From: Pseudomonadota bacterium
GTDB taxonomy: Bacteria; Pseudomonadota; Gammaproteobacteria; Xanthomonadales; Rhodanobacteraceae
Direction of reading: 5' to 3'
Assembly (NCBI GenBank): GCA_021793575.1
Contig: JAJYSM010000001.1
Coordinates: 3,371-67,370, forward strand
DNA: 64,000 nucleotides
Part shown: positions 30,532 through 31,305 of the stretch, piece after piece
Layout: each line of letters opens with the position of its first letter
How positions within the stretch are numbered: position 1 is the stretch's first letter
The notes under the pieces: model-generated
Told to the model about the DNA's origin: nothing
Database searches by the model: none
The model's input: only the letters and a program-made list of their open reading frames with translations
Position numbers and translations under genes: made by a program

Positions 30532-31305
30532 TCACCCCGACGGCGGACGCCCCTCGGGAATCAGATCAAGCTGGCGTGCCTTGACGTAGTCGTAGATCGA
30601 GCGGATGTCCTTTGCCTCGAAGAACCCCGCCCACGCGGGCATGCCCTGCTCCTGCCGGCCCGCCATCGTGATGCTCAGGAACTGCTCGAAGCTCATGCCG
30701 TTGCCGAGTGACTTGCGCAGGTCCGGCGCGATCTCGCCGCCGACGGCGTCGCCGCCGTGGCAGCGAAAGCAGTAGGAGTTGTATTGCTCGTAGCCGTTAA
30801 AGACGGAGGCAGTGACGTGTTTCTGGTCGGCGCTGGTGAACACCGCGAAGTCGGTTTTCACAGTCTTGCCATCCGCGGTCTTATAGGTGTGACTCGCGCC
30901 CGCGCCGCCGGCCTTCTCGGCAACGGCGTTGCCGACGTCAGCCTTGGCTGAACCGCTGTCGCTGCCCAGCGACAGAATCCACTTCACCATCACCGTCAGG
31001 TCGGCGTTGCTGAGCTGCGGGTGCGATGTCATCGGTATGTCACCCCAGTTGCCCGCACCGCCCTTCTTGACCCTCTGCATCAGCGTCTGGACGATCGCGT
31101 CGCCCTTGCCGGCATAACGCCTGGCAATCTCCTGGTAGGCCGGACCGACCAGCTTGTGATCGAAGGCATGGCATGAAAAACAGTCGCTGGCGCGCGATTT
31201 GGCCTCGCCCTCCGGCGTCTTGGTGTCGGCAGCGTGCAGCGCCAGCGGGGCGGCCAGCCCGAGGACGAGGGCAAGCACGGCCCGGGACGGCGTGAGCAGA
31301 TGCAT
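30532..31305 (-). CDS. xoxG: Di-heme cytochrome c: N-terminal c551/c552-like domain fused to a C-terminal XoxG-like domain
   Basis: Signal peptide; CFSCH...LVGPAY...GNWGDIPM; Ala/Gly linker; [10 protein letters not shown]...APDL...GMPAW...IYDYVKAR...IPEGRP. Confidence 0.8.

Follow-up and report, generated by a model that had tools for sequence, protein, structure and literature searches.

A xox-cluster cytochrome that joins a c551/c552-type domain to a XoxG-like domain, a candidate tethered electron relay for XoxF

On the minus strand of the window (the whole 64,000-nucleotide stretch of Rhodanobacteraceae DNA analysed here), the gene behind xoxF and xoxJ encodes a two-haem periplasmic cytochrome that is real and widely conserved: one exported chain carries two haem domains of class I. 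On balance we think it probable that this fusion is a dedicated electron acceptor of XoxF acting as a two-module relay, in which electrons would pass from XoxF to a C-terminal XoxG-like domain, from there to an N-terminal c551 domain, and on to a membrane acceptor.

The xox cluster

In minus-strand order the cluster reads xoxF-xoxJ-cytochrome-adhC/frmA-gfa-TonB receptor, so that the cytochrome occupies the xoxG slot behind xoxF-xoxJ, in agreement with an earlier reading of this DNA (the sequence-only reading) that had seen in it the electron acceptors downstream of XoxF:

32277..34076 (-): xoxF, lanthanide-type PQQ methanol dehydrogenase; likely ATG start at 34076 (listed ORF start 34253)
31347..32258 (-): xoxJ, periplasmic binding-protein fold; likely true start ATG 32195
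30532..31305 (-): two-haem cytochrome gene including stop codon; 257 aa (P0001)
29322..30518 (-): adhC/frmA, S-(hydroxymethyl)glutathione dehydrogenase (TIGR02818, 725.8 bits); likely start near 30434
28429..29004 (-): gfa, glutathione-dependent formaldehyde-activating enzyme (NF003829, 335 bits)
25866-28394 (-): TonB-dependent receptor, 842 aa, Plug and barrel; ends the cluster

XoxF matches TIGR03075 at 698 bits, has XoxF 6oc5 as its best PDB match (E 5e-227) and carries the lanthanide D-Y-D motif (HDEWDYDG). Among solved structures, the nearest to it are 6oc5 and 6dam, XoxF from M. extorquens and M. buryatense, both of which we take to be XoxF5-type. XoxJ matches TIGR03871 at 194.9 bits and TIGR03870 at 135 bits, and its gene adjoins the cytochrome gene in all relatives examined. 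The F-J-G order of the window is that of mxaFJG, whereas the canonical XoxG clusters of gammaproteobacteria are ordered F-G-J (loci L090, L095, L099); the window XoxJ is 28-31% identical to the XoxJ of canonical clusters and slightly closer, at 32-35%, to the MxaJ encoded beside MxaG. No oxidase gene is linked to the xox cluster. Beyond the TonB receptor, a GAF/sigma-54 activator lies divergently on the opposite strand (window 23739-28394 region).

Anatomy of the two-haem protein

The ORF at 30532..31305 (-) gives a stop-free translation of 257 aa, in which Pfam finds PF00034 at residues 39-113 (E 2e-12) and PF13442 at residues 170-241 (E 7.6e-16). Its parts, from the N-terminus, are:

31231..31305 (-): Sec-type signal peptide, residues 1-25 (...LALHA-AD), read from the sequence
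30958..31224 (-): c551/c552-type class I cytochrome domain, residues 28-116 (PF00034, 2d0s, Foldseek)
31168..31182 (-): haem-binding motif 1, C42-F-S-C-H46; invariant in 39 homologues
31030..31032 (-): Met92 (IPM motif), predicted sixth ligand of haem 1; invariant; aligns with the PM of c551/c552
30895..30957 (-): flexible Ala/Gly/Ser/Lys-rich linker, residues 117-137 (from pLDDT and variability)
30535..30894 (-): XoxG-like class I cytochrome domain with N-terminal beta-hairpin extension, residues 138-257 (PF13442, TIGR03874, Foldseek)
30757..30771 (-): haem-binding motif 2, C179-F-R-C-H183; C, C and H invariant
30640..30642 (-): Met222 (GMPAW motif), predicted sixth ligand of haem 2; invariant; aligns with the MP of 1yiq and 6onq

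The eight residues C42, C45, H46, M92, C179, C182, H183 and M222 are unchanged across 39 homologues, down to 45% identity. The sequence-only reading had listed the two CxxCH motifs (CFSCH, CFRCH), each with a distal Met, the N-terminal stretches LVGPAY and GNWG-x-IPM, and the C-terminal ones Y-x3-C, APDL, MPAW, IY-x-Y-x-KAR and IP-x-GRP; we find every one of them, the last three as GMPAW, IYDYVKAR and IPEGRP. A chance ORF or artefact is ruled out by the domain E-values together with this conservation.

An N-terminal hydrophobic stretch, variable in sequence, occurs in all homologues of the 39-sequence alignment; in the AlphaFold model of the window protein the signal peptide has pLDDT below 60. 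As this peptide (residues 1-25) is the sole export signal, a C-terminal domain translated separately would be unable to reach the periplasm for export and haem attachment.

N-terminal domain and linker

In a phmmer search of the PDB the N-terminal domain is matched best by Hydrogenophilus c552 (2d0s, E 1.4e-22, 49% identity), followed by Pseudomonas c551 and then by Hydrogenobacter and Nitrosomonas c552. Foldseek superposes the AlphaFold domain on c551/c552 structures with TM 0.85-0.89 and rmsd of about 1.6 Å. With C42xxCH46, M92 in a P-M pair, the 2d0s match and a TM of 0.89, the domain has the sequence and fold marks of the c551/c552 (c8) type, the type whose features the sequence-only reading had picked out, and we assign it to that class of class I cytochromes with predicted His/Met haem ligation. 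It shares the fold, the CxxCH and PM ligands and 38-49% identity with Pseudomonas c-551 and Hydrogenophilus/Hydrogenobacter c-552 (2D0S, 351C, 1YNR); those proteins are free-standing, whereas here the domain is covalently tethered to a dehydrogenase-specific cytochrome. Cytochromes c551/c552 are small and soluble and carry electrons to oxidases and nitrite reductases. The host genome encodes no c551-type domain besides this one, and no further copy of either fusion domain.

The protein had been proposed to be a tethered 'cL-cH' pair. The tether between two domains is borne out, and homology of the N-terminal domain to cytochrome cH is not: the PDB sequence and structure matches are all c551/c552, with no cH entry among them (1QN2, which we take to be cytochrome cH, is absent from the sequence matches), and a c2 match reaches merely E 0.29 over 36 residues. 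The 'cL-cH' label is thus valid at most by role.

Between the domains, residues 117-135 have pLDDT below 50 and the whole-protein pTM is 0.55, so the AlphaFold model shows two folded units that do not pack against each other in any fixed way. Family-wide, the linker spans 11-30 residues and is composed of Ala (32%), then Gly, Ser, Lys, Thr and Pro, much as the Ala/Gly/Lys linker first described, and its mean identity is 21%, against 59% for the N-terminal and 63% for the C-terminal domain. Compared with five relatives, the linker evolves nearly neutrally (dN/dS 0.3-0.9), and both domains are under purifying selection, with dN/dS values of 0.20-0.26 (N-terminal) and 0.09-0.21 (C-terminal), 0.09-0.26 taken together. 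Pairwise divergences of the two domains are correlated (r = 0.81; Mantel, 0 of 2000), the pattern that a single old fusion passed on intact would produce. A stop codon in the linker of relatives had been named as a finding that would speak against a fusion; in the relatives examined there is neither a stop codon nor a split gene at the linker, every full-length one being uninterrupted.

Affinities of the C-terminal domain

The sequence-only reading had called the C-terminal domain XoxG-like, which stands as regards structure, best family model and position: the best Foldseek match is XoxG 6onq (E 5e-5, 97 columns, 32% identity, rmsd 2.2), the best NCBIfam model is the XoxG model TIGR03874 (52.8 bits, profile positions 6-125 of 143), and the gene has the xoxG position. 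Membership of the canonical four-Cys XoxG group does not stand, given a clade outside that of 6ONQ, the missing extra Cys pair, and a score below the curated TIGR03874 cut-off of 161.75 bits. This cut-off is itself uninformative here, because none of 300 gammaproteobacterial genomes reaches it; several of the sub-cut-off matches in those genomes sit between xoxF and xoxJ, beside a XoxF 57-59% identical to that of the window. The PedF/ExaB model TIGR04494 gives the domain 41 bits (cut-off 122) and has no match for PedF in the host genome, and the cytochrome cL/MxaG model TIGR03872 has no match to the domain. By PDB sequence search the domain scores slightly better with quinohaemoprotein ADH 1yiq (E 1.4e-11, 50 bits) than with XoxG 6onq (E 4.9e-9, 41 bits).

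C179 and C182 are the only cysteines of the domain, so that it lacks the second Cys pair of canonical XoxG, whose extra Cys are present in 6ONQ and in gammaproteobacterial XoxG-like proteins. With both of these it has in common the extension ahead of the haem site. The C-terminal KAR...GRP tail (Y-x-Y-[LV]-[KR]-A-R...G-R-P) is common to the domain and the gammaproteobacterial XoxG-like proteins; the aligned part of 6ONQ goes no further than ...LRARA.

A tree of 93 cytochrome domains (131 columns) was built from the fused family and its close relatives, from XoxG-like, PedF and MxaG proteins of the 300 gammaproteobacterial genomes, and from fragments of 6ONQ and 1YIQ. It recovers MxaG (100/100) and PedF (100/98) as clades and clusters the canonical four-Cys XoxG-like proteins with 6ONQ (95/59). 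The fused family falls in a separate clade (100/99) that also takes in mono-haem relatives, a cupredoxin fusion and a number of uncharacterised proteins; the tree puts PedF and 1YIQ inside this clade on a very long branch, a placement that we do not trust. With 131 columns, AU tests did not reject a single clade of the fused family and canonical XoxG (p = 0.43), nor monophyly of the fused family (p = 0.53), and they reject neither canonical XoxG nor the PedF/quinohaemoprotein domains as the nearer relative of the C-terminal domain. In this tree the domain lies outside the canonical XoxG, PedF and MxaG groups and makes up a separate lineage among the PQQ-dehydrogenase-associated cytochromes. 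Such a separate lineage fits the view that XoxG cytochromes comprise several unrelated groups that have in common their genomic association with XoxF and not their descent (PMC5874918).

Distribution and co-occurrence with xoxF

A word-indexed search returned 266 clusters at 90% identity, distributed across several phyla; the best 120 of these 266 all contain both Pfam domains, in proteins of 215-294 aa. Their members are named in the sources only as 'c-type cytochrome' or 'cytochrome c-551'. More than 250 clusters at 90% identity make the fusion anything but rare. In the literature searched, which took in few subscription journals, we found no description of a two-haem XoxG fusion, an architecture that was also unfamiliar for XoxG to the sequence-only reading.

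Within the host family, the full-length fusion is found in 11 of 151 genomes and is absent from the other 140. The same 11 are exactly the genomes with a XoxF of at least 73% identity, and in them fusion and xoxF lie a few hundred bases apart; no cytochrome of this kind goes with the other PQQ dehydrogenases of the family (about 40-50% identity). Among five Rhodanobacteraceae/Lysobacterales loci compared, one of them on a contig that ends before gfa, the five-gene order is kept in Rhodanobacter sp. A1T4, a fen Rhodanobacteraceae MAG, and Rhodanobacter and Lysobacterales MAGs. The xoxF-xoxJ-cytochrome order is also present in a 'Deltaproteobacteria' MAG. Further away, homologues with 51-66% identity in Binataceae, Microbulbifer and a JGI metagenome contig stand behind genes for a D-Y-D PQQ dehydrogenase of about 600 aa and an SBP_bac_3 protein (XoxJ), often beside pqq biosynthesis genes. 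By its position and inheritance, then, the cytochrome looks like a functional XoxG, being adjacent to, and co-inherited with, xoxF and xoxJ. In the Microbulbifer locus (L085), a TonB receptor, pqqA, pqqD and pqqE lie upstream of xoxF.

An exchangeable second module

A search with the C-terminal domain alone recovered complete mono-haem relatives with a signal peptide (P0128, P0129, P0131; 166-185 aa), one of which, P0129, is located between xoxJ and a XoxF 67% identical to that of the window. Mono-haem forms branch from among the fused ones in the tree, whose well-supported branches require no fewer than three changes of state. The presence of mono-haem members of the clade between xoxJ and xoxF indicates that the C-terminal domain is the constant, XoxF-linked part and the c551 module an add-on.

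Two further cases illustrate this. In a genome of the host genus (G093), a 215-aa ORF (L089 7326-7973, minus strand) precisely lacks the c551 domain and keeps the signal peptide, the 'DG.TEAQ' stretch and the linker. It neighbours a xoxJ fragment (residues 181-302 only), and downstream is a different PQQ dehydrogenase, 43-48% identical to XoxF and with a XoxJ-like gene of its own; the locus looks like a decayed or rearranged xox locus. In P0130, from a soil metagenome (L142 39-950, on a contig too short to show neighbours), the C-terminal domain carries in place of c551 an N-terminal sulfocyanin-type cupredoxin (PF06525 SoxE, E 1e-21), and the protein may be a copper-haem version of the relay. 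Together these sequences show that the second module is swappable: the redox module at the N-terminus has gone missing in some proteins and in one has been replaced. As a third architecture we considered P0125 (189 aa), a metagenome gene call in which a XoxF signal peptide and N-terminus run into the C-terminal domain via out-of-frame sequence; a faulty assembly or a frameshift almost certainly lies behind it.

Proposed relay and its alternatives

In the relay that we favour, the protein would be exported by the Sec route and haem then attached at both CxxCH sites. The XoxG-like domain would dock on XoxF and take single electrons from PQQH2; each electron would hop from the haem of that domain to the N-terminal c551/c552 haem in tether-limited encounters (tether of 11-30 residues); and the c551 domain would pass it to a membrane acceptor, most likely the genome-encoded cbb3 or aa3 oxidase. 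We infer the XoxF-contacting domain, the intramolecular transfer and the final acceptor. Counted in favour are the anatomy and ligands, the resemblance to XoxG, the gene order, the co-occurrence, the mono-haem relatives, the disordered linker, the selection on the domains and their co-inheritance, the sole export signal, and the possible acceptors in the genome (aa3, cbb3 and a NirK-cytochrome c fusion). Counted against are the position of the C-terminal domain outside the canonical XoxG clade, its want of a Cys pair, the slightly better sequence match to 1yiq, the lack of a linked oxidase, and the c4- and c5-type carriers of the genome, which could act between the fusion and the oxidases. The median pI values of the domains (6.9 for the N-terminal, 6.3 for the C-terminal) give no clear docking polarity.

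Of the alternatives, one in which both haems accept XoxF electrons as a two-electron sink, emptying PQQH2 of its two electrons in a single encounter, or in which the polarity is reversed, with entry at c551 and exit at the XoxG-like domain, fares best, although we hold it to be rather unlikely. PQQH2 yields its two electrons singly, a one-at-a-time release that is established for MDH and cytochrome cL, and AlphaFold gives no fixed geometry favouring one order. Also in its support, and correspondingly counted against the relay, a direct partnership of c551-type cytochromes with other PQQ dehydrogenases has been proposed (bioRxiv 10.64898/2026.07.10.737718). Set against this are the mono-haem relatives that consist of the C-terminal domain only and are still found in xox clusters, which implies that this domain alone is a sufficient partner, and the cupredoxin of P0130, which is easier to reconcile with an exit module open to exchange than with an entry site.

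A polyprotein whose linker is cut once it has been exported, so that c551 and a mono-haem XoxG become separate, free proteins, strikes us as very improbable. Some cytochrome fusions are cleaved precursors, Bradyrhizobium FbcH being an example, and a linker that is Ala-rich, disordered and unconstrained would allow it; but that linker has no conserved cleavage motif and varies freely in length and sequence, a plain two-gene operon would achieve the same, and the fusion has been kept across phyla. Most improbable of all is a general respiratory dihaem cytochrome, c4-like in function and merely near xoxF without being its acceptor, which would suit the non-committal source names and the score under the curated XoxG cut-off, but not a fusion that accompanies one XoxF lineage as its neighbour in 11 of 11 genomes and is missing from the remaining 140 of the family, the same neighbourhood in distant phyla, the lack of any c4 structure among the PDB matches, or a genome that already has three c4-type genes.

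The fusion might also be read as a 'Rosetta stone' for the step downstream of XoxG, according to which a c551/c552 carrier (or, in the soil relative, a sulfocyanin-like cupredoxin) would be the physiological acceptor after XoxG, both PQQH2 electrons would be discharged per docking, and in denitrifying Rhodanobacteraceae the c551 domain could feed NirK-cytochrome c. This extension we regard as speculative and more doubtful than not by a good way. Among loci L007-L080, no free-standing c551-like gene was found beside xoxF in other taxa, so an unfused pair lends it no independent support. If true, transfer from c551 to NirK-cytochrome c would couple lanthanide-dependent methanol oxidation to nitrite reduction where oxygen is scarce.

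Relation to known systems

Like the C-terminal domain, the XoxG of Methylorubrum extorquens AM1 (6ONQ; TIGR03874) is a c-type cytochrome of class I whose gene neighbours xoxF and xoxJ. This XoxG is mono-haem, has an extra Cys pair and belongs to the order xoxF-G-J, whereas the fusion has two haems, no such pair and the order F-J-G. The literature states that MxaG and XoxG are mono-haem, as the sequence-only reading had noted for XoxG. Cytochrome cGJ of Methylacidiphilum, a XoxG-XoxJ fusion, is likewise a fused xox accessory protein, but it joins one haem domain to XoxJ and not to a second cytochrome; this XoxGJ of Verrucomicrobia is the sole XoxG fusion that we found in the literature searched.

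The cytochrome domain of type II quinohaemoprotein ADHs (1YIQ, 1KV9) and the c550 PedF/ExaB share a superfamily with the C-terminal domain, that of the PQQ-dehydrogenase-linked class I cytochromes. Quinohaemoprotein ADHs also tether their acceptor, but in them the haem domain is part of the dehydrogenase chain, and PedF is free. Dihaem cytochrome c4, a donor to cbb3 oxidase, likewise has two class I haem domains in one periplasmic chain; its domains are tightly packed paralogues, whereas those of the fusion are of different families and are held by a disordered linker. The different domain families, the disordered linker, a pTM of 0.55 and the absence of any matched c4 structure rule out that the protein is a c4. 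The principle of a tethered electron carrier is already well known from quinohaemoprotein ADHs, c4, caa3 and NirK-cytochrome c.

Apart from a few model methylotrophs, the path that electrons take after XoxG is poorly known, and the partners of XoxG are largely inferred from genome position (PMC5874918); a conserved natural fusion offers a concrete, dissectable candidate for the carrier that follows. A survey of Binatota counts such genes simply as XoxG (PMC8262859), and under that label, or as 'c-type cytochrome' or 'cytochrome c-551', a distinct lineage of XoxF, XoxJ and two-haem XoxG goes unrecognised. The fusion could serve as a marker for this F-J-G lineage, which occurs in acid-soil and peat Rhodanobacteraceae, Binatota and others.

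Other redox proteins of the host genome

The genome encodes an aa3 oxidase, a cbb3 oxidase (CcoN, CcoP), a qNOR, a NirK with a C-terminal cytochrome c domain, and c4- and c5-type cytochromes, with three genes of the c4 type. Outside the window, at C37:10889-14710, the copper nitrite reductase (488 aa), called by sequence, adjoins a qNOR-like COX1-family gene, and tethered cytochrome domains recur among the periplasmic redox enzymes of the host. At C64:19513-22240, likewise outside the window, a second PQQ dehydrogenase, 42% identical to XoxF, adjoins an exported protein of about 400 aa whose last 100 residues are a class I cytochrome c and whose first 300 are without a Pfam match; this could be a fusion of a XoxJ-like protein and a cytochrome. 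Within the window itself, at its far end, 62974-63651 (+) encodes a c5-like mono-haem cytochrome (CTSCH) with an apparent N-terminal membrane anchor, which could be among several class I cytochromes acting downstream.
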